From the NCBI GenBank assembly GCA_951406725.2, contig OX597817.1, forward strand, positions 98,642,001 through 98,706,000: a stretch of DNA of 64,000 nucleotides. The letters are read 5' to 3'. Each line of letters opens with the position of its first letter. Within the stretch, counting starts at the first letter, position 1. The notes under the pieces were generated by a model. The model ran no database searches and was not told the DNA's origin. It saw nothing but the letters and a program-made list of their open reading frames with translations. Source of the stretch: Octopus vulgaris. Taxonomy: Eukaryota. The translations under genes and the position numbers were made by a program. This document shows, one piece after another, positions 11,767 to 64,000 of this stretch.

Positions 11767-11899
11767 TTACCTCTGGATATCCTTGTTGCTTATTTTGATT
11801 TTAATCACCTCATTTTGAAATTGTATGGATAATACCATACTAAATTTTGGTGCCTCAACTTAAGTACGATATTCATCTGAAACTATATATATATATTAC

Positions 11900-12007
11900 C
11901 TTCCCACTGAGAATCTTGAAAGCTAAAGAATTCATATCTCTTGCATTGAAGGCATGTCGTAATGTAGTCATCTCGTACACACAGCAGCCTAATGCCCAAA
12001 CATCAGA
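11900..12007 (-). CDS. NEK4: NEK4-like kinase exon: SDVWALGCCVYEMTTLRHAFNARDMNSLAFKILSGK
   Basis: Lies inside ORF 11873-12073; ttgcAG/GTaat splice sites; 108 nt, phase 0 to 0; kinase subdomain IX. Confidence 0.93.
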
Positions 12008-12321
12008 CTGCAAAAAAGAAATTACAAATATAAAAATTAAATGGAAGTTAAATAACAGTTTGTCTGTATGCAACTACATGGTTAAAATACATGCATGGAT
12101 ACAAGAATAGGTTTTTAGAATATTTACTAGAATTAATGATCTTCCACAAACAACCTTGCCGAACTTGTGCCTCGGAGGGTAACTTTCTAGGTGCAATCCC
12201 ATGGTCATTCATGACCGAAGGGAGTTTCCTCCTCCTCAGTGAAGCTATATTTAAATTTACACAAGTTCTTTGGATTTACTGCATTGTGCATAAATAGATG
12301 TGGTTTAATTACAGACACTAA

Positions 12322-13569: not shown

Positions 13570-16500
13570 CAGTGTTGCCAACTTAAAATCAGAATTTTAT
13601 GCTAAATTTCAGTAGAAAAAATACCAAAAAATGCTAAATATGACAAAAAAGTGCTAAAGACTAATTATATCAAAAAGCTTAATTTTTATTTACATTTTTA
13701 TTTATTTTCTTCAGCACTGAGAAACAATTTCTAGAATTTCACTGATTTGATCATTTTCAGCTGCAGTGCCTAGGTCTTGACTTCTGTATACATTCAAGGT
13801 CCCAAGTTTGTTAATTATGTGTTTTGGAATATTGAAATTTTTGCAACATTTGCCATATCTTTCCAGGCCATATTTTATAGACAGTATTGATCTAAGCATA
13901 GGAAGATGCATTTTGTTTTTCAATTTTGTTTTGATTACACCCATACTACTGAGCAACTGTGCAACTTCTGCATTTGAGTTTGGCAATGTCAATAGAATAA
14001 TGGCAAAATCTGCAACATCTCTAAAAGGATTTCTTCCAGTACCATCTTTATATTCCAAGACTTTCGGCCAGAATGCCTCAGTATTAGACATATTTGTCCA
14101 TTTAACTAAATGAATAAATTCAGTTTAATAGCATTCATCATCATCATCATCAGAAAATGGACGTTAAACGATAATGATGATGATGATGATGATGAATGCT
14201 ATTAAACTGAATTTTAATTGAAGCAATTTTTTCTTCATTTAAATGCATTACTTTTAAAACAGGTAAAATTGGCTCTTTGAAATGCTGCAAAATATTCTCT
14301 ACTGAAAAACATTTGATATTCCTCAGTATATTAATATTTCTGGCAAACGGTGCTTGAGCTCTTTATAAAGGCAGGATAAAAACTGTTGCGGGCTTTTGTG
14401 AATATTATTTTCTTCTATCTTTCTCTCGAACCTGTAGCCTAAATTTGGTATAGGATCCAGAAATTTTTCAATAAAAGCATCCGAGTCAAGAGGATCAATT
14501 CTATATGTTGGCAACACTATCATATCAACAACAGATTTGATCAAATTTGAAAAATCTTCAAGTAATTTTGTTTTGTCGGCAGTGTTTGATTCAAACAGTT
14601 TATTCACTTCCTGAACATGTTTTAAAATTGGATGTAAAAATGAAAGGTAAAGTTCATTCCTAGAATCACAAAACATTTCGTATAACATTTGTGCTGTAAA
14701 GCATTTTTCTTTTGTAGTTGTAGTTTGGAAGTGAGTTTGCAATTCAAACCATTGGCTTGAAATTCTATTTACTGCTGGTTCTACTGACAGCCACCTAGAT
14801 GTACAAGAATTCATGATCTTCAAAGGCTCTTTATCATTGATAGCAAGGTAAAGTTGTTTGTAGGCACTTTGTCTTGTTGAAGAATGAGAGGATCATTTAT
14901 AGATTTTGGATACTAAAAATTCTAAATTTATGGGCAAGTATTCAGCACAAGTGTGGGATACTGCTAACTGTAAAGAATGACATACATTCTTTTACTTGTT
15001 TCAGTCATTTGATTGCAGCCATGCTGGAGCACTGCCTAATAGAAGTGATGATGGAACTTCTTTTAATTTCTGGAAAACACCATTGTTGACTCCTATCATT
15101 ACTCTAACATTGTCGGTTCCTATAGCCAGTAAATTTTTTATATCTAATTTCTTTTTCACTAATTCAATTTTTAAGGCATCTACAATGCCATCTGCATCAC
15201 GTTTCTAAAGATACCATACTGAGATATGTATGTAGCACTTTTTTGTGAGTGTCACTATAATACATGATAACAATTCTTGACAACTTGTTTATCAATATAT
15301 CATTGGATTCATCTAATAACAGGCTAAATTTTTATCTTCTATATCAGAAATCAAATCTCCATCAAAATATGGAGCTAGAATATTTCTCACAATATTTGCA
15401 CATTTTGTACGAGTCAACTTCACTTTGGATATAATATCCCCATCAGACATATAATTCTTACAAAACTCTATTAAGTGATCACAGTTATTAAATGATGACT
15501 GGCAACTAATAAACATTGCCAAATTTGCTTCAAGCATAGATGTCTTATCATTTTTGGTTTTAATAAAATTGGTAAGAGGAATCATTTGCTGTGGAGTTGA
15601 TGCCTTATGTTTCGTTGCTTCACAGTGGCTTACTAAAAGACAATATTTTACCAACTTACTACACCTACAATATCTGCAATATGCTTTAGATTGGTCACTA
15701 GGTACTTCACACAACCACTTAGTAAATGCTGGCCTCTTAAGCCATTCCTTTCGGAATTTTTGCTTTGTTTTTTCTTTGCTCATTATAATGTAGTGGGAAG
15801 CAAGAAAATAAATTATATGATTAATAAAAATATAAAATTTAAAACACAACTTATCAGTTTGCCGCTAACAATTCTTTCATTTGTCATTAACAATTCTTGT
15901 GTTTGCTGCTTACATTTGTAAGCAGGTGAAGAATACTGATTCAGGATGCAGGGTGGCCAGCTTATAAATGGAACAGTAAAATCTGCAGAAATCCTAAAAC
16001 TGTGTTCTGATATAAACCTGAAAACATCATATTTTGCTTCCAATCTTACATTTAATATCTATTAGTAAAACCACAAATATAACTACAATACTTGAAAAAA
16101 AAAAGTATGTAGAAATATAAAGGGGGAAACCCCCACCACGCCCATACTTCTATACAAGATATATAATCAAAAACAAGCATGAAAAACACAGGCTTACTTT
16201 AAAGCAGTCAAACTGAAAGTAAATCAGTCAACCTGTCATGATAAAAACTCATCACTACAGAATAAAGCATTGTTAGGACGAATTTCCATGCTTTCATTCT
16301 TTGCAACATATTTACATTATTGTATAGTGAATTCAGCTGCTGACATGAGTTATCTTCTCCCCCTCCCCCCACAAGCACCACTCTGTATCCAAGCTGGTGG
16401 CAGGATGGCTTGAAAAGTTCATAACTTGATAAACTTTCATTTGAAGTTTCAATAAAGTGAAAGAAAAATTCAACAATAGCTGATAGTACTAAAATTTGGC

Positions 16501-17927
16501 TATAAGATACATTAACGAAAGTAGAAAAGGAGGAAAAAGAAGAAAAAAGGGTAACTACTGTGGAAATGTCATGATCAGAGAAAATGGATCTTTTCTAAAA
16601 GATGGACAGAATTTTCTACTTAACTAAATAATTTGAAACTTCGTATACTGGTCGAATGTGTCAAAAGAAAACATTAATTTCAATTAGTTTTTTTGAGAAA
16701 AATGTATTTTGTAACTTTTACGTAGTTTAATTCTTCAAATTTTAATCAATCGTATTCTCTGTTTTGAGCTCAATTCATTTGCTGCCGTGTTATTCATCCT
16801 TATCACTGTCTTCTGTGTTCTGTCTTCAAAGACTTCTCGCATGTTTATTTCAATGTCATCCCTGACTTACGGAATGATTACCTGTGTGTGTGTGTTTTTG
16901 TTGTGTATGTGTGTGCGTGTGTGTGTTTGTTGTGTGTGTGTGTGTGTTATTGTTGTGTATGTGTGTGCGTATGTGTGTTTGTTGTGTGTGTGTGTGTTAT
17001 TGTTGTGTATGTATGTGTCTGTGTGTGTTTGTTGTGTGTGTGTGTGTGTGTTTTTGTTGTGTATGTGTGCGTGTGTGTGTGTGTCTTTTTGTTGTGTATG
17101 TGTGTTTTTTTGTTGTGTATGTGTGCGTGAGTTGTGTATCTCTTAAATCGATGAATTTCGTCGCCCAATAAAAATATTAACGATATCAAAGTTCAAAAAA
17201 TATCGTTAATATTTTTATTGGACGACGAAATTCATCGATTTAAGAGATACACAACACACGCACACATACACAACAAAAAAAACACACGCACACATATACA
17301 CAACAAAAAGACACACACACACACATGCACACATACACAACAAAAACACACACACATACACAATAACACACACACACACAACACACACACACACATACAT
17401 ACACAACAATAACACACACACACATACACAACAATAACACACACACACACATACAACAAACACACACACGCACACACATACACAACAAAAACACGCATAC
17501 ACAGGTAATTGTTCCGTAAGTCAGGGATGACATTGAAATAAACATGCAAGAACCCTTTGAAGACAGAACACAGAAGACAGTGATAAGGATGAATAACACG
17601 GCAGCAAATGAATTGAGCTCAAAACAGAGAATACAATTGGTTAAAATTCGAAGAATTAAACTACGTAAAAGTTACAAAATACATTTTTCTCAAAAAAACT
17701 AATTGAAATTAATGTTTTCTTTTGACACATTCGACCAGTATACGAAGTTTCAAATTATTTAGTTAAGTAGAAAATTCTGTCCATCTTTTAGAAAAGATCC
17801 GAGAAAAATGCTAAAAAAATGCTAAATAAAATTTTAAACCTGCTATATGCTAGATCCAAAAATGTTCTGCTAAATGCTGAAAACAAATGCTAGATCTAGC
17901 ATAAAATATACTAAATTGGCAACCCTA
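13570..17927 (-). mobile_element. Full-length hAT DNA transposon with disrupted transposase (~13711-15790)
   Basis: TIRs CAGTGTTGCCAA / TTGGCAACCCTA; identical 8-bp TSD TCACTGAT (13562-13569, 17928-17935); N-terminal C2H2-like finger (CRYC..H..H), SRWLS motif and dimerisation motif (LPNSNAEV). Confidence 0.92.
16586..17800. mobile_element. 1.2-kb foldback/MITE (near-perfect palindrome, Mutator-like) nested in the hAT
   Basis: GGATCTTTTCTAAAAG...CTTTTAGAAAAGATCC; arms of ~600 bp including mirrored (GT)n/(CA)n tracts; short loop near 17187-17198; near-TSD gagaaaat / gagaaaaat. Confidence 0.88.
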
Positions 17928-22428: not shown

Positions 22429-24020
22429 ATGAGTGTAAAGAAACGGAAGTATCTTGATGAATATATTCAATTTGGATTCATATCCCTCCAAAAGGGTGAT
22501 ACAGAAGTACCCCAGTGTGTGATATGTTACAAAACTTTGAGCAATGATGGAATGCAACCCTCTCACTTGGAACAACACATCCTGCTCTTGCAGACAAGCC
22601 CAAGGCATTCTTTTGAAATAAAAAGACATTCCTTGAAGCAAGCTAAGTTGGATGGTAGTGGGGCATTTCGGCAACAAACTTCAATGGTTGTTAAGGCTTC
22701 CTATTAGTTCGCCATATTGATTTCAAAGAGCAAGAAGAGCCATATAACATCGGAGAGTCTCTCATAAAACCAAGTCTACTTCATGAAGCAGAACTTGTTC
22801 TGGGGAAAGATAGTGCAAACAAGCTTTCCCAGATTTCACTATCAAACAATACAGTCAAGGGAAGGATCAACAACTTGTCTCAAAACATCAAATATCAAAT
22901 TCTCAACCATTTTGCCATCCAGTGTGATGAAATGACTGACATCGCTCAGTGTTCTCAGCTACTGGTGTATGCTCGTTTTGTGTCAGGCAACTGTGTAAAA
23001 GAGGAAATGTTCTGTCACCCTATGGATAGTTGTACAACAACAACAGATATTTTTTGTGATGGATCAAACTTCTTTCAGGAAAACCAACTTTTGTGGGATT
23101 CACTTGCAGGGTTGTGCACTGATGGAGCTCCAGCCATGCTTGGTCTGCAGTCTGGATTCATTACTAGGATGAAAGAAAAAAATCCATCTGTTGTAGGTAC
23201 ACACTGCATATTTCATCATAAAGCCTCAGCATCCAGAACCTAACCTACTGAAATGAGAAATGTCCTGAACATGGCTATCAAGGTTGTCAATTTTGTTGAA
23301 GGTGAAGCCTTAAACAGTCATCTTTTCAAACTGTTGTGTAAAGATATAGAATCTGAACATGAAGCATTGCTTTTTCACATGAATTTACAATGGCTATCAA
23401 AGGGGAATATACTTGGACAGCTTTATGACCTATGAGAAGTAGCAATATTTCTTGATTTGCAGAAGGTAGATCTCTATGACAAGTTTCAGTGTGAAGGCTT
23501 TCAGCTATTTCTAGCTTACCTAGTGGACATCTTCAAAGCATTGAATGCTCTTGGCCTTAAACTACAGAGGAAAAACAGCAACATTCTCATGCACCATGAC
23601 ACCATTTGAACTTTCATGGCCAAACTCAACCACTGGAAATGTTGCATTCAGCAGGGAAATACAGCTAATTTTAGTTACTTGGATTCTGCTCTCATTCATG
23701 GTAACCTTGATCCTGAGTTAAAGAAACAAATAATCACTCATCTGACTTGAAAACAGAATTCATCAGATACTTCCCAGATATAGAAGAAAAGCGTGAAGCT
23801 TGGAAATTCATCAGGAATCCATTTCAGTGTGAAGTGATTGATGTTTTGGATGAAGTGCAAGAAGAATTTCTTGAGCTGAAGTTCAACTCCCCAGCTAAGG
23901 AAGATTTCAAAGAACTGGATCTTGAAACATTCTAGATCAAGTAACTTCCTGTTAATCCTCTGATCTCAGATCAAGCTCTTTGGATTTTAGCTATGTTTGA
24001 ATCTATGTATCATTGTGAAG
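22429..24020 (+). mobile_element. Degraded hAT Buster/Charlie transposase
   Basis: KRKYLDEYIQFGF..PQCVIC BED finger; IQCDE, CTDGAPAM, THCIFH, QWLSKG motifs; multiple stops. Confidence 0.88.
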
Positions 24021-34619: not shown

Positions 34620-35230
34620 TACACTCACATTTATATAATAAATTTTATCTTTATACCCAGCTTCAGCTAGGGAATTATTATAGAACCTTTCATTATTCTT
34701 TAATATTTCTTCATTAGTGGTCAGTCTAGATATATGAAGAGAAATATTGTTAATGATAGAAGCCGTAATATTTTTAGGATGATTCGAGTTTTTATCTATG
34801 CATTTAAGGTTATCATTGGGTATGTGGTAGAAAGTCAACCTTACTATACTCATTTTCAATGGAAATAGGCAGAACTAGATCTTAAAATGATTTAAAGAGA
34901 GTTTTTTCCATAATTTTTCTTTATTTACATTACTAGATTTATATACAGTAAAGAAAGCAACAACCCTATATAATCCACCCCTCGCCCCTGCCCATTTGTG
35001 CAAATTCACTGTTTATACATTTTCAAATATATATTCCCATTAAGTCCATTACATGAGTAGAATCACTGGAGGCCATGGTAATGTTGAACTGATCAGCTCT
35101 ATCTTTCCTTACCCACTATTTTCCTTCAAATTCAATTATGGATTTTTTAGCAACCTGTATATTTACTTCTTCCTTAGATAAGCTTAAGTCTTTTCTCATT
35201 GTAAATATTAACACTTAAAGTACCCTCACT
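34620..35230 (-). mobile_element. Penelope-like (Neptune-type) reverse transcriptase fragment
   Basis: WVRK..FNITMASSD..DLMGIYIL resembles the PLE FDVTMGS motif; SNHPKNI..ISRL..NEE..AGY is the thumb/linker. Confidence 0.75.
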
Positions 35231-44449: not shown

Positions 44450-46900
44450 ATCTCACAAGCAGTTCATGCAGAAAGTTTGTTGTAGTTGAGTAGGTTGGCT
44501 TTTTACACTTACAAATTTCTGGTCATTTAGAGAAACTATCTAATATCACTAAGTAGTATGAACCACTTAAGGGACCAGTGAAATCGATGTGTAGTCTCAA
44601 TTATGGAACATCTACTTTTGGCCAAAGTTCACCTTTTAATTTTGGTAAGTTTGCCACTAGAGCACAACTGTGCACCCTTACACAAACTTTTCGATTTCTC
44701 TATCAATTTTTGGCCAGTATACATAGCTATGCACAAAAACTTTCATCCTCGAAATACCAGGATATCCAACATGGAATTCCCTCAACATTTTCTTTTGCAG
44801 TGTTTTAGGTATTACTTCTCTCTGTGCATACATCAGTACACCATTACAAATTGAGTATAGGTTCACATCTTGCTTTTGTTTTATTCCAATCCTGTTCCTA
44901 TTTACTTTTCCTGTCCACAGTATTCTTTTCATTTCTGTTATGAATTAGTCTTTTTTCACATTATGTTTTGTCTTCTAGGGCTACTGGTAATTTGCATACC
45001 ACATTTCACATTACATTTTTTATTTCTCCTTTTGATTTTAATATTCCATTTTGTAATCATAATTCAATAATGTGGTGCCCCATCACTGTAGTCTATTTGC
45101 TATGTGTGTTGGTATTCCTTTTTTAGAACCACTTATTGACAGTAGTGGGTGATGATCTGTTTGTAGACAGAAAATTCTTCCATGAATAAATCTATGAAAT
45201 TTTTTCACACTGAATGATTGCTAATGCTTCCTTTACTATTTGACTATAGTTCCTTTCTGCTAGTAATAATGATCATGATGCATGAGCTATTTGTGCGGAA
45301 GCACTGCTCCTACACCATAATCACTCCCATCTGTACCCAATATAATATCCAGCTCGAGATCAAAATGTGCTAATGATAAGTTCAATGTTAAAATGTTTTT
45401 TTAATTCCTCAAATGCCTTCTATTTTGTATTTTTCTTTAACAAATCACTGAGTGGAGCCCTTAAATTGTGTATATTGGAAATATAAATTTGGTAGTAATT
45501 CACTAATCCCAAGAATGCTTGTAGTATAGTCACATTATTTGGTGTGGGCATATTTTTTATCACAGTTGCTCTGGATGGATCTGGTTTCTGCCTGTTTTTA
45601 TCTATTATCTGACCCAAGTACTTAAATTTTTCAGAAAGAACTTGCATTTTTCTTCGCTTAACTTAAAACCATATTCTTGTATTCTCTTACTCTTTCAAAT
45701 ACCTCTTTATGTGTTCTACATATTGCTCATGTGATTTGTTTTTTATTAGGATATAGTCTAAATAGGCGATAGCAAAATCTCTGCCTACCAGAATTATATC
45801 CATTACTTCTGGAAATATGGAAGGGATCACTTTCACACTGAAGTTAAGCTGCTTAGATTTAAATAAACCAAGGTGTGTATCAGTGGCTAATAAGTGTGAG
45901 CATTCTTCTACATGGATTTGTAAATATGCCTCTGAGAGGTCTAATTTTGAGAATTTCCCTCCATTCAATTTTGCAAACACTTCCTCAGGACTTGGCAATG
46001 GGTAGTTATGCGAGATTAAGCAATCATTCAGCCCCATTGAAAAATCTGCACAAACTCTTAACTTATTATTTTTCTTTTATACATAGACGATAGATGCTGC
46101 GTAATCTGAGTAGTCCCTCTTCTCGGTTATTCCTATGATTTCAACTCTTTCAAGTTCCTTATTTACCTGTTCTAGTGCTGCAAATGGTACGTTATATTTT
46201 GGCTTAAATACAGGTGTTGTACTTTGTTTTACTACAATTTTGCCTTCATTTTCACGCAGCAGCCCAGCTCATCCAAGAAAACATCTGGAAATAAATGTTT
46301 TAAGTTTTCATTTCAATCCCTCAGGCACATTTGAACCTTCAACTGAACTGATTATATTCCCACACAAAACACCTATGGACATATTCCACAATTTGAACAG
46401 CTCCATCCACTCTGTGCTGAATAGATTAACTGAATTTTTTAACACGTACTTTTGCCATTTTCATTTGGTCACAAAATGTCACATTATACACAAATTCACC
46501 TACAAAATACAATCTTTTACCTATAACACTGTGTGCTACTTTTGTAGACTTACTTAATTTTGGCTTACTGATATACTTCCAAGTTTCTTCATTCACAATG
46601 GTACTATCACTTCCAATGTCTAACTGCATTTTTAATCTTATATTTTCAATTTTCACATTTATGAATTTCTTCTTAGTCACATTACCATTTTCTTTTGACA
46701 ACATACTGTTTATTCTTTTTTCTTTGTTCCAACGTTTTGTCAATTTGGTTTTACAGTGCACTTTTATGTGCCCAATTTTTCCACAATGGAAACATTCCAC
46801 TTTCTTAAATGGACAGTTTTTCCTCAGGTGTAGACCTCCACATGCCAAATATGGGTTTGTTTCCTGATTTTTGTCCTGTTTGTACACACTTGATTTCTAT
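44450..46900 (-). mobile_element. Degraded Ty3/Gypsy gag-pol
   Basis: Zinc knuckles (CFHCGKIGHIKVHC), protease (LDIGSD), RT (LDLSEAYLQI, YLDYIL), FLGLVNYY, integrase Zn finger (HVGYPGISRMK..YWP). Confidence 0.9.
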
Positions 46901-51905: not shown

Positions 51906-52005
51906 NNNNNNNNNNNNNNNNNNNNNNNNNNNNNNNNNNNNNNNNNNNNNNNNNNNNNNNNNNNNNNNNNNNNNNNNNNNNNNNNNNNNNNNNNNNNNNN
52001 NNNNN
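51906..52005. other. Assembly gap (100 N)
   Basis: Run of N. Confidence 1.
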
Positions 52006-58376: not shown

Positions 58377-58772
58377 ATATATATATATCAATAATTCAGT
58401 GATTGTTTCTTATCAGGAACAAAATGTTTAATAGGACTGCTATAGAAGTGCTCAATTGAATGAGACAAATATATCAAACTATAGTTGCAGAACAAACAAT
58501 TACAGGGTCATCCACGTAACATTTCATATCTCGAACATTTAATCATAGAATATACATGTATAATATCATGGAAGATGAAACATAACTCATCTGTACAAGC
58601 ATATAAGAAAGTGCGAGAAAAATGTGTGAATACAGTTCATCACGGTTAAAAGTTAATACTTTAGCGATTAAGAAATATATATTATTTTAAAAAACATTAC
58701 AACACCTAGAATAATAAATACGTAAAAATATAAAGTATAAAGTAACATATAAATATATAGGTATATAAATAA

Positions 58773-58817
<45 letters not shown>

Positions 58818-58976
58818 GCATATAAATAAGTAATATATACGTTAAGATAAAAGTTCATCGTTTGGAAAATTTTTTATAAAATACTTTTCAGATAAGGGAA
58901 ACCTATAGTTATAAGCCAGTGTTCAAGCAAAAAAGAGGAAAAAACCATATTTACATTCCCTATGGCCATTTCAGGG

Positions 58977-61930
58977 TGTTATGCGTGTAGTTGTTGTATC
59001 AGGAAAGACAACCAGTTGAAAGCCATTGTTATGTTTATCATGTTTATTGACGTTACTTACATGCACGACCCATTACAGTGTAGTGATACATTGTTTACTT
59101 AACACACAGTTTGTATTGTTCACTAACAAATAGTGCCAAGAGTATGGAGTAGTTTGGCATTCGCAAACACACAGATATGAATGTGTAACATCCCTTCTTC
59201 TTGAAAAAAAAAGGGGTCTCTTGGCAGTGAAGACAACTATGAGTAGTCTCCCTTGCTCTATGGATTGTCATCATGTCTTTTCTTTTTCTTTAGCGGTATC
59301 GAACCGGTGGCAGAATGTTCTTTCTCCATCTGGTGGATCTTCTGCTTCGCACCTGTGTCTGAGGTGTGTTGTACACGTTTTCCTCGGTAGCTCTGGTGTT
59401 GGGCGGATGTGGGCCCTGTTGCGTCTCAGCTGCCTACCAGATTCTGTTTCTATTATATTTGATCTTGGAGTTTCAGCTCTACTGACAACCTTTGCTGGGA
59501 TCCATGTTTTAGTTATGGGATCTTGAGTATGCACATGTTATCCTCCAAGCATCTCAGGTAAATATTGTGCATGTTTGTTGTGATGCCTCTGTGCTCGTTC
59601 TTGAGTGGCTGCTAGCTTTGCCCTTGTTTCTTTCTGGTCAATAGGAGGTTGGATCTTAGTTGGCAGGGTAGTTTTATACTTCCTGCCATTCAGCAATTCT
59701 GCTGGGGATTTCATATTAGCTCTCAGTGGAGTCGCTCGTAGGGACATAAGTGCCAGGTGTGGGTCTTCCCTAGTCTTCCGGCATTTGACTAGTGTTCTCT
59801 TCACTGTCTGCACCTGTCTTTGGGGCAGTGTGGAGATGAAGTTTTAATATTGAACCCATACTCATCGGCTAGCTTTTAGAATTCTTGTGACGTGAACTGG
59901 ATTCCATTGTCACATATGATCTGCTCTGGTATTCCTTGCTCTGCTAGGAGTCCTCGGGCCACTGTAGTGATTGTTTTGGCTGTCAGGTCTTTCACTTTTC
60001 TCACAATTGGAAATTTGGAGTAGTAGCAGGCCATTATTAAATACCATTCTTAGCCTTCTGTGAATAGATCTACTCCAATAGTTTGCCATGGCCTTCTTGG
60101 GATGTCACCAGATAACATTTCCTCCTTTGTTGTGAGGTTTTGTACTTTTCTATGTCTTTCTTTTGTTGTGAGGTTTTGTACTTTTCTATGTCTTTGTACA
60201 TGCGCTTATTGGTTGTCACATTTACAATCTGGTGGACCTTTCTGCTTAGTCCTTCCATCTCCTTTTTGTTTGTGATTGGTGGTTGGTCTTTGATAGGCAT
60301 ATCACTGTTAATCCTGCTTGGAGCTGCTTTCACTTCAGCATTGACCGACACAATATTTAACCTCCTGCAGGTATCGAGTCCAAGAATTGCTGGGCCTTCT
60401 GTTCTTGTCACATAAAATGTACACTCGATTGATTTCCCTTTGTGTGTCCCCTTTATTGTTGTTTTCCCCAGTTGTGGGATTCTGGTACCTCCGTACGCAG
60501 TGAGGACCACATCACTTGGTGTGAGGATTCCTTTCCTGACCCTATCCTCTTCTGTCATATTTTCTGGGAACATCTTCTTGTATAAGCCGACAGGCAAGAT
60601 ATCACTCTGGGCCCCAGTGTCTATCTTCAGCCTTAAGTCTATGTTTGTTCTTTTCCTTCCGGCCTTCTTTTGAATTTTTATCATCGTGTATGCCTCATCT
60701 TCTTTCCTTCGGTCGTCCTTTCCCTTCTCATGCACATTTATTATGCCGATTGCTAAGAATTCCTCCTCTGAGGTGCTTTGTTCCTGTTGTTGTGCATGTA
60801 TATCCCTTCTATTTCTGCTCCTCTTTGAAACTTGGGGCTTGTATCTCTGGGATTTTGTTATCCTACACATTTTTTTTCCAGTGGTTCAGTTTTCCACATC
60901 CTTTGCAGTGTGTACCGAATGCAGGACATTTTTTCCAGTCATTAAATTCATGCTCTGTACCACAGTACCGGCATGTTCTTTGGTTTTGGGTTTGTGTCCT
61001 GTCCTTATATACAGTATCTACACTGCTATCTAGTGGGCTTGCTTGTAAGCTTAGTGAGGCCATTTGTTTGGTAGTGGCTTCAAATGCTCTTGCAGTGTCT
61101 ACTGCTTCTACCAACTGGAGAGCGTCCTTACCTATGAGGGATTTTGCACTTCTTTGTGGGCACACCCCCATATTAATTGGTCTACAATTCTCTCCTCCCT
61201 GTCTTTGAATTTGCATTTCTCTGCAACATTTTTCAGTCTTGACAGGAAATTGTCTATTGTTTCTTGTGGGGCTTGTTTCAGGCCCTGGAATTCGTATCTC
61301 TGAATTCTGTGGTTTGACCTGGGCTCTAGGTGCCTCTCAAATTTATCAAGAAGTGTATCTGGGTCATTGCAGTCTGATTCTGACATATCCCAGCTATTGT
61401 ATAGGTCTATTCCTTTATTACCTGACCATAAAAGGATGTAACTTACCTTTTCATCGTCAGTTGTGCCTTTCAGGAAACTTTTGAAAGCTAGTTGAGCTTT
61501 TTGTTTGAATTTTTTAAATTCTTCAACGACATCACTAGAATCCCAGTTCATAATCGGATGCAGATTCATCTGTACGGCGACGGGGGTCGCCATCTTGGAT
61601 TCTTTGTTTATGTTGTCCGAAGCGTAGCGATGTTTTGTTTGCTAATTCCACGTTCGTTGTGTTCCTGTTTTGTTTTAAAAGCACAATTCCGGATTAATTG
61701 TTTACCGCTGCCACCATGTTGTGCGTGTAGTTGTTGTATTGGGAAAGACAACCAGTTGAAAACCATTGTTATGTTTATCGTGTTTATTGACGTTACTTAC
61801 ATGCACGACCCATTACAGTGTAGTGATACATTGTTTACTTAACACACAGTTTGTATTGTTCACTAACAAATAGTGCCAAGAGTATGGAGTAGTTTGGCAT
61901 TCGCAAACACACAGATATGAATGTGTAACA
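58977..61930 (-). mobile_element. Gypsy-like LTR retrotransposon, internally deleted (gag, protease and integrase C-part; RT/RNase H missing)
   Basis: Two 214-bp TG..CA LTRs (58977-59190, 61717-61930); 5-bp TSD CAGGG; PBS TGGTGGCAGCGG (tRNA-Leu-like); PPT aagaagaaggga; CRYCG..H..C knuckles; IDTGAQ protease; SPAELLNGR integrase. Confidence 0.95.
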
Positions 61931-62032
61931 CAGGGGTACATTACTGTATTTAATGCACGAGGGTGCATCACAATAATAACTCCTTCGTCAGGGGAAAAAA
62001 TAGAGAGACAGACATCACGTACCAGGGCGAGA

Positions 62033-63209
62033 CCTCCTTAACCAGACTTAACACCACAATATTGTGTGCTTTCTTATTTAAGAAGTCATGCTTAGACGAG
62101 CCCAAATGAAAGAATTAAATCAGTAAAAAAACAAAAAAAAAAAACAAATGGGTGTATTCAATTAAATTCAACCTCGGTGGTTTCAATTACCTGTAAGAGC
62201 TATATTATTTATTTGCTACAACTTATTTTATTCCTATACACTTTTAAGAATGTAGATGAAAATTTATTGATGCAAAAAGGAATCACGTCAGTAAATTTAT
62301 TCAGAGTGTGTGGTCCATAACACCTAAGGATGGTAAGGGATTCCCTTTAGATGGTTCCTGTCTAGTTACTAACGTCATATATAAATGTGTAGTCAAGGAC
62401 GAGGATAAGTTAAATAAATTTTAACTGGGCAATGGCCCAGTGGTTAGGGCAGCGGACTTGCGGTCGGAGGATCGCGGTTTCAATTCCCAGACCGGGCGTT
62501 GTGTGTGTTTATTGAGCCAAAACACCTAAAAAGCTCCACGAGGCTCCGGCAGGGGATGGTGGTGATCCCTGCTGTACTCTTTCACCACTCTAAAGGCGGT
62601 GCTCCAGCATGGCCGCAGTCAAATGACTGAAACAAGTACAAAAAAAAAAAAAAAAAAAAATAGGTAGCACGGTAGATTTTAAGGCTAGATATAGATCGCA
62701 TATGAGCTCATTTTCTAACGATAAATATTGTAATTCAACAACACTTGCATCCCATATACATAATTTGAAGAAAAATAATAAGAACTATTATCTAGAATGG
62801 TCCATTGTCTCTAAAACCCCAAATTTCAAGGGAAATATTAACAAGTGTAAGTTGTGTATAAGGGAATCCCTTACCATCCTTAGGTGTTATGGACCACACA
62901 CTCTGAATAAATTTACTGACGTGATTCCTCTTTGCATCCATAAATTTTCATCTACATTCTTAAAAGTGTATAGGAATAAAAATAAGTTGTAGCAAATAAA
63001 TAATTTAGCTCTTACAGGGAATTGAAACCACCGAGGTTGAATTTAATTGAATACACCCAGTTGTTTTTTTTGTTTTTTTTTTAATTTATAAAAAAATTTT
63101 AACGGTTTTTTTAAATGTTTTTTTTTTTACTGATTTAATTCTTTCATTTGGGCTCGTCTAAGCATAACTTCTTAAATAAGAAAGCACACAATAAATCTGG
63201 TTAAGGAGG
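62033..63209 (+). mobile_element. Penelope-like (Neptune-type) 3' fragment: GIY-YIG endonuclease with inverted pseudo-LTR
   Basis: PLDGSCLVTNVIYKC..KF[SINE]IGSTVDFKARY..NSTTLASHI..W..CKLCIRE..LNK..CIH; 62033-62342 is the reverse complement of 62862-63209. Confidence 0.85.
62424..62659 (+). mobile_element. tRNA-derived SINE with CR1-like 3' tail and poly(A)
   Basis: A box TGGCCCAGTGG; B box GGTTTCAATTCC; tail ggcggtgctccagcatggccgcagtc..ctgaaacaag. Confidence 0.85.
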
Positions 63210-63308
63210 CATTTTGTGTCTGTTATTTTGTATTGCGGTTGTTGTGTGAGTTGGATTTTGTTGTTGGAAGCTGTTACGGCGTGGTGAATTGTTGGAGTTT
63301 TGTTGGGT

Positions 63309-64000
63309 ATGCAAGCCCAAACTTATGCGGGAGCAGCAGGCAAGGGCCTGGCTGCGAGCGAACTGCAGTTGAAAGAAATAGTTGTCGAGAAGGAGAGTTT
63401 GAAGAAATACTTCGACAGCTTCAAGAAGGAAGGTGATTGTCTGAGGGTCACACCACCTGAAGACGAAGCGAAAGAAGCTGAGAAGCGTATTATAACATAC
63501 AGAACGTGGAGTGTGGTTTCGAAGAGAATAGAAGTGGCAGAGGAGGAGGAAATCGAGAGGTGTCTACAGGAAATTGAAGGAAAAACTACCTTCTACAATA
63601 GAGGTAGAAAATACGCAACAGTAGTCGTTCATTTTGAAAACAAAGATGAAGCGAAGAGGAACGCCACAACAATATTGAAAACCGGAAAATGGGTGTTACT
63701 ACCTAGCTATTGTGGAAAAAGAGCAGTAAGAATACGAATTAGTAAAATTTCACCGGAACTGAACATGGAAAGAATTGTAGCGGCAATAGTATTCAACTTC
63801 AAAGAGAGCGTCGACATACTGAAGGTAGAAAAGTCGAAAGAAATAAAGTGGTGGGGTTATGCGGTGCAGGCTTTGGTTCACATAACCATGCCAGACCTGT
63901 ATAACATCCCAGAGGAGTTGGTGTTCCCCGACGAGACACGTCTCAGAGTCGTGGTGGAGGGGAGACCCCCAGTGTGTTACAAATGCAAAATTAGAGGCCA
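63309..64000 (+). CDS. Tx1/L1-like LINE ORF1 (RRM-like region + CCHC zinc knuckle), open to the window edge
   Basis: Manual translation MQAQTYAGAAGK...LRVVVEGRPPVCYKCKIRG(H); 230 codons with no stop; absent from the supplied ORF track. Confidence 0.75.
   Translation, partial: MQAQTYAGAAGKGLAASELQLKEIVVEKESLKKYFDSFKKEGDCLRVTPPEDEAKEAEKRIITYRTWSVVSKRIEVAEEEEIERCLQEIEGKTTFYNRGRKYATVVVHFENKDEAKRNATTILKTGKWVLLPSYCGKRAVRIRISKISPELNMERIVAAIVFNFKESVDILKVEKSKEIKWWGYAVQALVHITMPDLYNIPEELVFPDETRLRVVVEGRPPVCYKCKIRG

Follow-up and report, generated by a model that had tools for sequence, protein, structure and literature searches.

Here, we identify in the genome of Octopus vulgaris a hammerhead ribozyme sequence that is split by an LTR retrotransposon. 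The window analysed (the whole 64,000-nucleotide stretch, contig OX597817.1, positions 98,642,001 to 98,706,000) contains the two halves of the motif about 3 kb apart. We consider it highly probable that a Penelope-like retroelement, likely a member of the Hydra clade, carries the hammerhead at its 3' end and that a later Gypsy-type LTR insertion broke the ribozyme core, most likely by chance. The nesting of mobile elements at this locus, which belongs to the kinase gene NEK4, is likely an ordinary pile-up with no host-gene switch.

Removing positions 58977-61935, which comprise the LTR element and one copy of its CAGGG target-site duplication, reconstitutes an 82-nt type I hammerhead on the minus strand. 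Its parts and the two duplication copies are as follows.

61936-61996, minus strand: 5' part of the hammerhead, with the 5' strand of stem I, core and most of helix II
61996-61992, minus strand: 5' strand of stem I
61991-61985, minus strand: core CUGACGA
58956-58971, minus strand: 3' part of the hammerhead, with A13-A14, helix III, A17 and the 3' strand of stem I
58972-58970, minus strand: G12-A13-A14
58969-58962, minus strand: palindrome AUGGCCAU, helix III
58961, minus strand: A17, with the predicted cut between 58961 and 58960
58960-58956, minus strand: 3' strand of stem I, giving a stem of 5 bp
58972-58976, no strand: target-site duplication copy 1, CAGGG
61931-61935, no strand: target-site duplication copy 2, CAGGG, whose minus strand forms the helix II base and G12

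The empty site carries the type I core features CUGACGA, GAAA, A15.1-U16.1 and an AUA triplet (of the NUH form). Three helices are present with helix I open-ended: stem I has 5 bp, helix III has 2 bp in a monomer or 8 bp in a dimer, and helix II spans 53 nt with 21 predicted pairs. The predicted helix II fold reaches -18.0 kcal/mol (z = -5.0), a value equalled by none of 500 dinucleotide shuffles. As folded, the pair at the base of helix II is A-U, and G10.1-C11.1 forms only if the first A is taken as an extra base and the U is left unpaired. The sequence-only reading had described an LTR element inside a hammerhead with a CAGGG duplication, a complete motif upon its excision and a long paired stem II. 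All of this held: the LTR pair has CAGGG at both flanks, and core, 5-bp stem I, AUA triplet, palindromic helix III and paired helix II are all in place. The ribozyme of about 85 nt that it expected is a hammerhead as proposed, with a measured length of 82 nt.

A type I descriptor accepted the empty site and passed 0 of 200,000 random junctions of window pieces, which rules out a chance motif; it found no intact hammerhead site within the window. An assembly artefact is ruled out by the target duplication and the five differences between the LTRs. An Rfam scan of the window, in whose sequence the motif is split, returned no match at the gathering score, and between 58500 and 64000 it gave no hammerhead at E values up to 10, only two chance-level hits to other families. 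The insertion falls directly after core base G12, interrupting the catalytic core and hitting no loop, and the target duplication (CCCUG on the minus strand) spans the helix II base and G12. As the allele now stands, the 5' half continues past G12 into LTR sequence and is separated by about 3 kb from A13-A14, helix III and the cleavage site.

We compared the window with contigs from four public sequencing runs (X18, X2, X1 and X4) out of 24 listed. In three of the four runs, contigs pass directly from 58971 to 61931 and leave out exactly 2,959 nt: one contig in X18 (depth 10.2), two in X2 (85.8) and two in X1 (10.8), with no such joint in the X4 contigs. The shorter side of the joint measures 23-34 letters, the contigs show presence only, and X1 and X2 are only guessed to be RNA. 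The filled junction did not occur among the contig pieces listed (32 of 584). These joined contigs are the uninterrupted copies on which the earlier reading had staked its reconstruction. Judged by its sequence, the split motif is a genuine hammerhead motif, and uninterrupted copies of it exist.

Alongside the joined form, X18 and X2 contain a variant with other helix II letters. By eye, and with no covariation test, it turns two helix II U-G pairs into U-A; on the aligned sides it leaves the core, stem I and helix III intact, and the distal hairpin stays partly paired. The variant fits a conserved structure. Contigs further show flank variants at 58912, 58923, 58941 and 62003-62011, and loose ends at 61995 and 62044 where other copies continue into different sequence. 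Together, the helix II variants, flank variants and loose ends point to a multi-copy repeat family with subfamilies. The contigs with the joint may derive from the orthologous empty allele or from paralogues; the second possibility is raised by position 58923, where the letter differs from that of the window in most or all of the contig depth. Separately, the reverse complement of 58474-58510 (plus strand), which lies between two (TA)n tracts, matches the loose ends seen in X2 contigs after the hammerhead, at 61995 and 62044; within it, 58484-58499 matches exactly at 16 of 16 positions, with 0 expected by chance. This segment is possibly a 3' UTR piece of a sister subfamily, ending shortly ahead of that subfamily's hammerhead. 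When metagenome contigs were scanned for an exact 19-nt motif, three loci came up, all of them chance matches in unrelated coding DNA with no similarity to the window.

The hammerhead adjoins two truncated Penelope-like arms in opposite orientation, which are themselves interrupted by other repeats.

61997-62347, minus strand: inverted 5'-truncated Penelope-like arm, with the GIY-YIG C-terminus and 3' UTR, running into the hammerhead
62344-63209, plus strand: direct 5'-truncated Penelope-like arm, with the GIY-YIG domain and 3' UTR
62344-62423 and 62660-62989, plus strand: GIY-YIG domain pieces in the direct arm
58815-58955, minus strand: likely 3' tail of the Penelope-like arm, spanning the roughly 140 nt between hammerhead and (TA)n, partly covered by variant family contigs
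58775-58814, no strand: (TA)n microsatellite, likely target of the Penelope-like insertion
62424-62659, plus strand: SINE-like insertion inside the GIY-YIG frame, with a tRNA-like head by eye and a poly-A tail; ends approximate
63210-64000, plus strand: a separate repeat, which cuts off the direct arm; its 237-codon frame resembles a LINE ORF1 by eye

The GIY-YIG tail, 3' UTR and hammerhead are contiguous on one strand, and the inverted arm ends at the (TA)n tract at 58775-58814, the opposite end having been removed by another repeat. Positions 62347-62033 (minus strand) are an inverted copy of about 62860-63209. The arms meet at 62344-62347 and differ at 6 of 279 aligned non-poly-T positions, and the direct arm stops about 36 nt before the place of its own hammerhead. 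In one X2 contig, 62347 is connected to 62393 on the opposite strand, which would be expected if those parts share one direction in other copies. ARAGORN found no tRNA gene in the SINE-like insertion, and Pfam gave only a weak DUF5045 match for the 237-codon repeat.

A full HMMER search with the GIY-YIG piece at 62660-62971 matched 2,173 cluster representatives, and a word-index protein search with this piece found nothing among 59 candidates. Pfam gave no GIY-YIG hit on the window's own piece, and its GIY-YIG hits on relatives, including P0007, lie below the curated cut-off; the Atlas holds a cluster with GIY-YIG on 26% of its members at 0.91. The endonuclease piece of the window aligns to residues 663-803 of P0007, which has RT-type motifs upstream. 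The arrangement that defines EN+ Penelope-like elements, a C-terminal GIY-YIG linked to a PLE-type RT, is thereby found via this relative, the window holding the EN part only. The accompanying layout of 5' truncation, an adjacent inverted truncated copy and a hammerhead near the 3' end is seen in the window directly. Features reported for the Hydra clade are DKT, RWK, a CxCX5C linker, and CxxC and CxH flanking E and N (PMC8557442). By eye, the window piece has CxxC..E..N..CxH, the linker and RT being absent from the truncated copy, and P0007 has DKT and CxCx5C, with its RWK reading RWR. The (TA)n insertion preference of the clade is found at the end of the inverted arm. At the level of sequence, a Penelope-like element carries this hammerhead as its 3'-terminal ribozyme, a link that the sequence-only reading had not made. 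The element likely belongs to the Hydra clade, an assignment made by motifs seen by eye and not by a tree. A decayed RT fragment of a related Penelope-like element also lies at 34632-35160 (minus strand), 30-35% identical to P0007 residues 301-487 and carrying stops and frameshifts.

It is unlikely that the hammerhead instead belongs to a non-autonomous, retrozyme-like short repeat that merely adjoins the Penelope fragment. Such a repeat would suit the X2 contig depth of 55-85 over the hammerhead flanks against 5-18 over the GIY-YIG tail, the continuation of other copies into different sequence at 61995 and 62044, and the derivation of retrozymes from Penelope ends described in a bioRxiv preprint. 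However, contig depth is not copy number, and both the depth pattern and the loose ends are explained by 5' truncation and sister subfamilies. The Penelope-like element is also favoured by the continuous run from GIY-YIG tail through 3' UTR to hammerhead on a single strand with no tandem unit: no tandem 170-400-nt units occur in 58500-62500 and no further intact hammerhead in the window.

The sequence inserted into the hammerhead is a 2,954-bp Ty3/Gypsy LTR element without an RT or RNase H match.

61717-61930, minus strand: 5' LTR, 214 nt
58977-59190, minus strand: 3' LTR, 214 nt, with 5 transitions relative to the 5' LTR
61697-61716, minus strand: likely primer-binding site, directly after the 5' LTR and beginning TGG
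60256-61593, minus strand: gag and protease region with frameshifts, similar to P0167 residues 8-479
59293-60151, minus strand: integrase core and C-terminal region, broken, P0167 residues 1058-1400
59191-59202, minus strand: polypurine tract, before the 3' LTR

The LTRs start with TG, end with CA and differ at 5 of 214 positions, all transitions. We take 61697-61716 to be the primer-binding site from its position and general knowledge. The polyprotein P0167 is ordered RVT_1 (555-711), RNase H (775-901) and integrase (1008-1167), which is the Ty3/Gypsy order; in comparison with it, RT, RNase H and the integrase zinc finger had no match in the inserted copy. As these domains are unmatched and the remaining frames are broken, the inserted copy is non-autonomous. 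Its integrase piece at 59541-59843 yielded no useful PDB match and only a sub-0.9 rve lead in the Atlas. The copy shares TG..CA LTRs, a 5-bp target duplication, a primer-binding site and a polypurine tract with a K02A2.6-like Ty3/Gypsy family of octopus (P0156-P0172). Whereas the full-length relative P0167 reads gag-protease-(RT-RNase H)-integrase, the inserted copy gives no match to RT, RNase H or the zinc finger and has frameshifts and stops. A 36-nt tandem duplication at 60123-60194 lies beside its internal deletion, and contigs of other copies of the LTR element run into other sequence at 60210 and 60267. Elsewhere, 44639-46900 (minus strand) holds a second, more decayed Gypsy-type pol fragment with protease, RT, RNase H and integrase zinc finger matches.

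The position of the target duplication inside the hammerhead indicates that the LTR element arrived second. At a rate of 0.0036 per My (PMC13282606), the LTR divergence corresponds to about 3.3 My (1.1-7.6), and that of the Penelope arms (6/279) to about 3.0 My (1.1-6.5) if they were identical at insertion; the two divergences are indistinguishable (Fisher p = 1.0). With overlapping ages and wide intervals, the dates cannot separate the two insertions and are compatible with a quick follow-up insertion, which selection would also predict. Recently active insertions reported for O. vulgaris include 329 Penelope and 147 Ty3-like copies (PMC13282606). We propose that a 5'-truncated Penelope-like copy with an inverted arm would have inserted at (TA)n in a NEK4 intron, placing one hammerhead on the NEK4 strand. 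Next, a non-autonomous Ty3/Gypsy copy would have entered behind G12 and displaced A13-A14, helix III and the cleavage site to a place about 3 kb downstream; finally, SINE-like and LINE-like repeats would have hit the other arm.

The window encodes NEK4, the matched piece being identical to records from Octopus vulgaris and O. sinensis.

51131-51027, minus strand: NEK4 exon, residues 130-164, closest of the mapped exons on the downstream side of the hammerhead
About 20030-19944, 12010-11897, 3737-3582 and 2717-2262, minus strand: further NEK4 exons

NEK4 residues 1-129 had no match within the window. Since the exons lie on the minus strand and residues 1-129 fall outside the window, the hammerhead is on the NEK4 sense strand and very likely intronic. 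A 100-N gap at 51906-52005 separates the 130-164 exon from the hammerhead site; if the scaffold is right across it, the hammerhead very likely lies in the intron upstream of this exon. The sequence-only reading had placed the motif on the NEK4 strand and probably in an upstream intron, in agreement with the exon mapped downstream at 51131-51027 (minus strand). The upstream exons that it wished to see mapped fall outside the window; the exon placed is the nearest one on the downstream side. Three further observations concern the gene. The exon at 11897-12010 (minus strand, residues 196-233) is missing in O. bimaculoides isoform P0003 and present in O. sinensis P0002, a difference that suggests alternative splicing in the part coding for the kinase domain. 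In a NEK4 intron, 16586-17800 forms a 1.2-kb inverted repeat (fold-back) whose arms are about 91% alike, and broken frames at 13714-15864 (minus strand) and 22695-23240 (plus strand) resemble, by eye, remnants of hAT-type transposases.

Folding predictions describe a hammerhead of the dimer type. Forcing the 2-bp helix III in a monomer costs 2.8 kcal/mol, and the monomer minimum of -23.5 kcal/mol is a shifted, non-hammerhead fold (hammerhead fold, -19.2). The palindrome AUGGCCAU forms an intermolecular 8-bp duplex at -11.3 kcal/mol, which is seen in the cofolded dimer. Within its own element, two copies in tandem would form 8-bp helices III from their paired AUGGCCAU palindromes, with cleavage following AUA. 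Such dimer cutting would release element RNA from a longer transcript, a role hypothesised for tandem transcripts in PMC4209133. That study found no cleavage by single Penelope min-HHRs and low cleavage by dimers, and dimer-dependent Penelope hammerheads are also reviewed in PMC6765202. On its own in an intron, a single copy would cleave slowly if it did so at all, and we predict no activity for the filled allele. Some monomer activity is possible given an axolotl hammerhead with a 2-bp helix III that reached 22% monomer cleavage in one hour (PMC7229834).

The earlier reading had gone further, proposing that the empty allele could cleave the NEK4 pre-mRNA and that the insertion would neutralise it. 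With a dimer-type helix III and no second sense hammerhead found in the window, cleavage of NEK4 pre-mRNA was probably weak, and we do not uphold a meaningful effect of the empty allele. Nor do we see support for neutralisation by the insertion, as two other repeats also break the same element. We rate as decidedly unlikely a history in which NEK4 pre-mRNA was cut by the unbroken hammerhead, either unaided or paired in trans with transcripts of the family, and the LTR insertion spread by silencing the ribozyme. Sense orientation in what is very likely a NEK4 intron, an intact core with its AUA triplet, an insertion that hits the core exactly and two indistinguishable insertion ages are all in keeping with such a history. 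So are the under-representation of retrozymes in Xenopus introns after size normalisation (bioRxiv 10.64898/2026.07.22.740005) and the monomer activity reported with a 2-bp helix III (PMC7229834). Yet the helix III is of the dimer type and the window holds no second intact hammerhead. The antisense arm, which is unable to cut NEK4 RNA, is broken by SINE-like and LINE-like repeats too, and 42-44% of Xenopus retrozymes are still intronic (bioRxiv 10.64898/2026.07.22.740005). A point change in the core would presumably silence the ribozyme as well as a 3-kb insertion, and a single locus cannot show selection. Since SINE-like and LINE-like sequences break the same element, and repeats crowd the window, we regard nesting by chance as more likely than neutralisation under selection.

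We give very little credence to a version in which the very long helix II confers monomer or trans competence, the sense copy cut NEK4 pre-mRNA, and the Gypsy core insertion of similar age was favoured as a suppressor. If an insertion did spread as a suppressor and empty alleles segregate, the locus would provide a natural on/off pair for testing the host cost of intronic transposon ribozymes. It would also be a direct test of the open question of whether intronic retroelement ribozymes harm host transcripts. It is exceedingly improbable that the separated halves come together over the 3-kb insertion to form a discontinuous ribozyme of the kind known from mammalian Clec2 (PMC6765202): both halves keep their core letters and the duplication supplies the 3' half with its own CCCUG, but assembly would rest on the 5 bp of stem I and 3 bp of helix II base, would compete with an identical cis copy predicted to be already paired in the filled allele, and would still need a dimer partner for helix III.

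The preferred reading, a Penelope-borne hammerhead broken by a later LTR insertion, has close parallels in print, where hammerheads of Penelope elements, truncated inverted arms and a Hydra element from octopus have all been described. Neither this octopus hammerhead family nor the locus was found in the literature covered, in which subscription journals are mostly unrepresented; the supplements of PMC13282606 and PMC4209133 may hold the family. A plant-type LTR retrozyme is ruled out, the hammerhead lying outside the LTR: in plant LTR retrozymes the hammerhead is part of the LTR, whereas here it is the insertion target. Animal non-LTR retrozymes (PMC7229834; bioRxiv 10.64898/2026.07.22.740005) likewise have type I hammerheads, a weak helix III and a low-GC repeat, but are described as tandem 170-400-nt units; here there are none, and the motif is attached to a GIY-YIG coding tail.

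Metazoan PLE hammerheads described by Cervera and De la Pena in 2014 (PMC4209133) share a helix I of 4-5 bp, an enlarged helix II, and a palindromic 15.2-16.2 and loop 3. They too occur mostly as single truncated copies, sometimes in opposite-strand pairs. Their helix II has 7-8 bp, a conserved G10.1-C11.1 and an extra base after A9. In contrast, the first helix II pair here is A-U (or the A is the extra base and the U is unpaired), and helix II is about three times longer.

The nearest match is with Hydra-clade elements, for which Craig et al. 2021 (PMC8557442) report (TA)n targeting together with canonical hammerheads. As in the octopus element, these are type I hammerheads near the 3' end, behind a C-terminal GIY-YIG, in elements with a (TA)n target. 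The same source describes Penelope-13_HM, in which an inverted 5'-truncated copy carries a second hammerhead on the opposite strand, the layout seen in the window. A short stem I and cleavage after A are also found among Hydra-clade hammerheads, with TCCC/GGGA in Penelope-1_NV. In the supplement of PMC8557442, 26 rows give Hydra hammerheads located near the 3' ends of elements, one of them being Hydra-1_oBim of Octopus bimaculoides; the sequence described here differs from the Hydra-1_oBim hammerhead and so represents another family. Helix II has stems of 3-7 nt in all 26 rows against 21 predicted pairs over 53 nt here. Helix III begins with AC and has 3-4-nt arms in every row, where the octopus motif starts A-U/U-A within a full palindrome. 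As folded here, the motif departs from these published rows in two traits: its long helix II, and a helix III that starts with AU and is palindromic throughout. A helix II of this length falls outside short-stem descriptors, and such families may therefore be undercounted.
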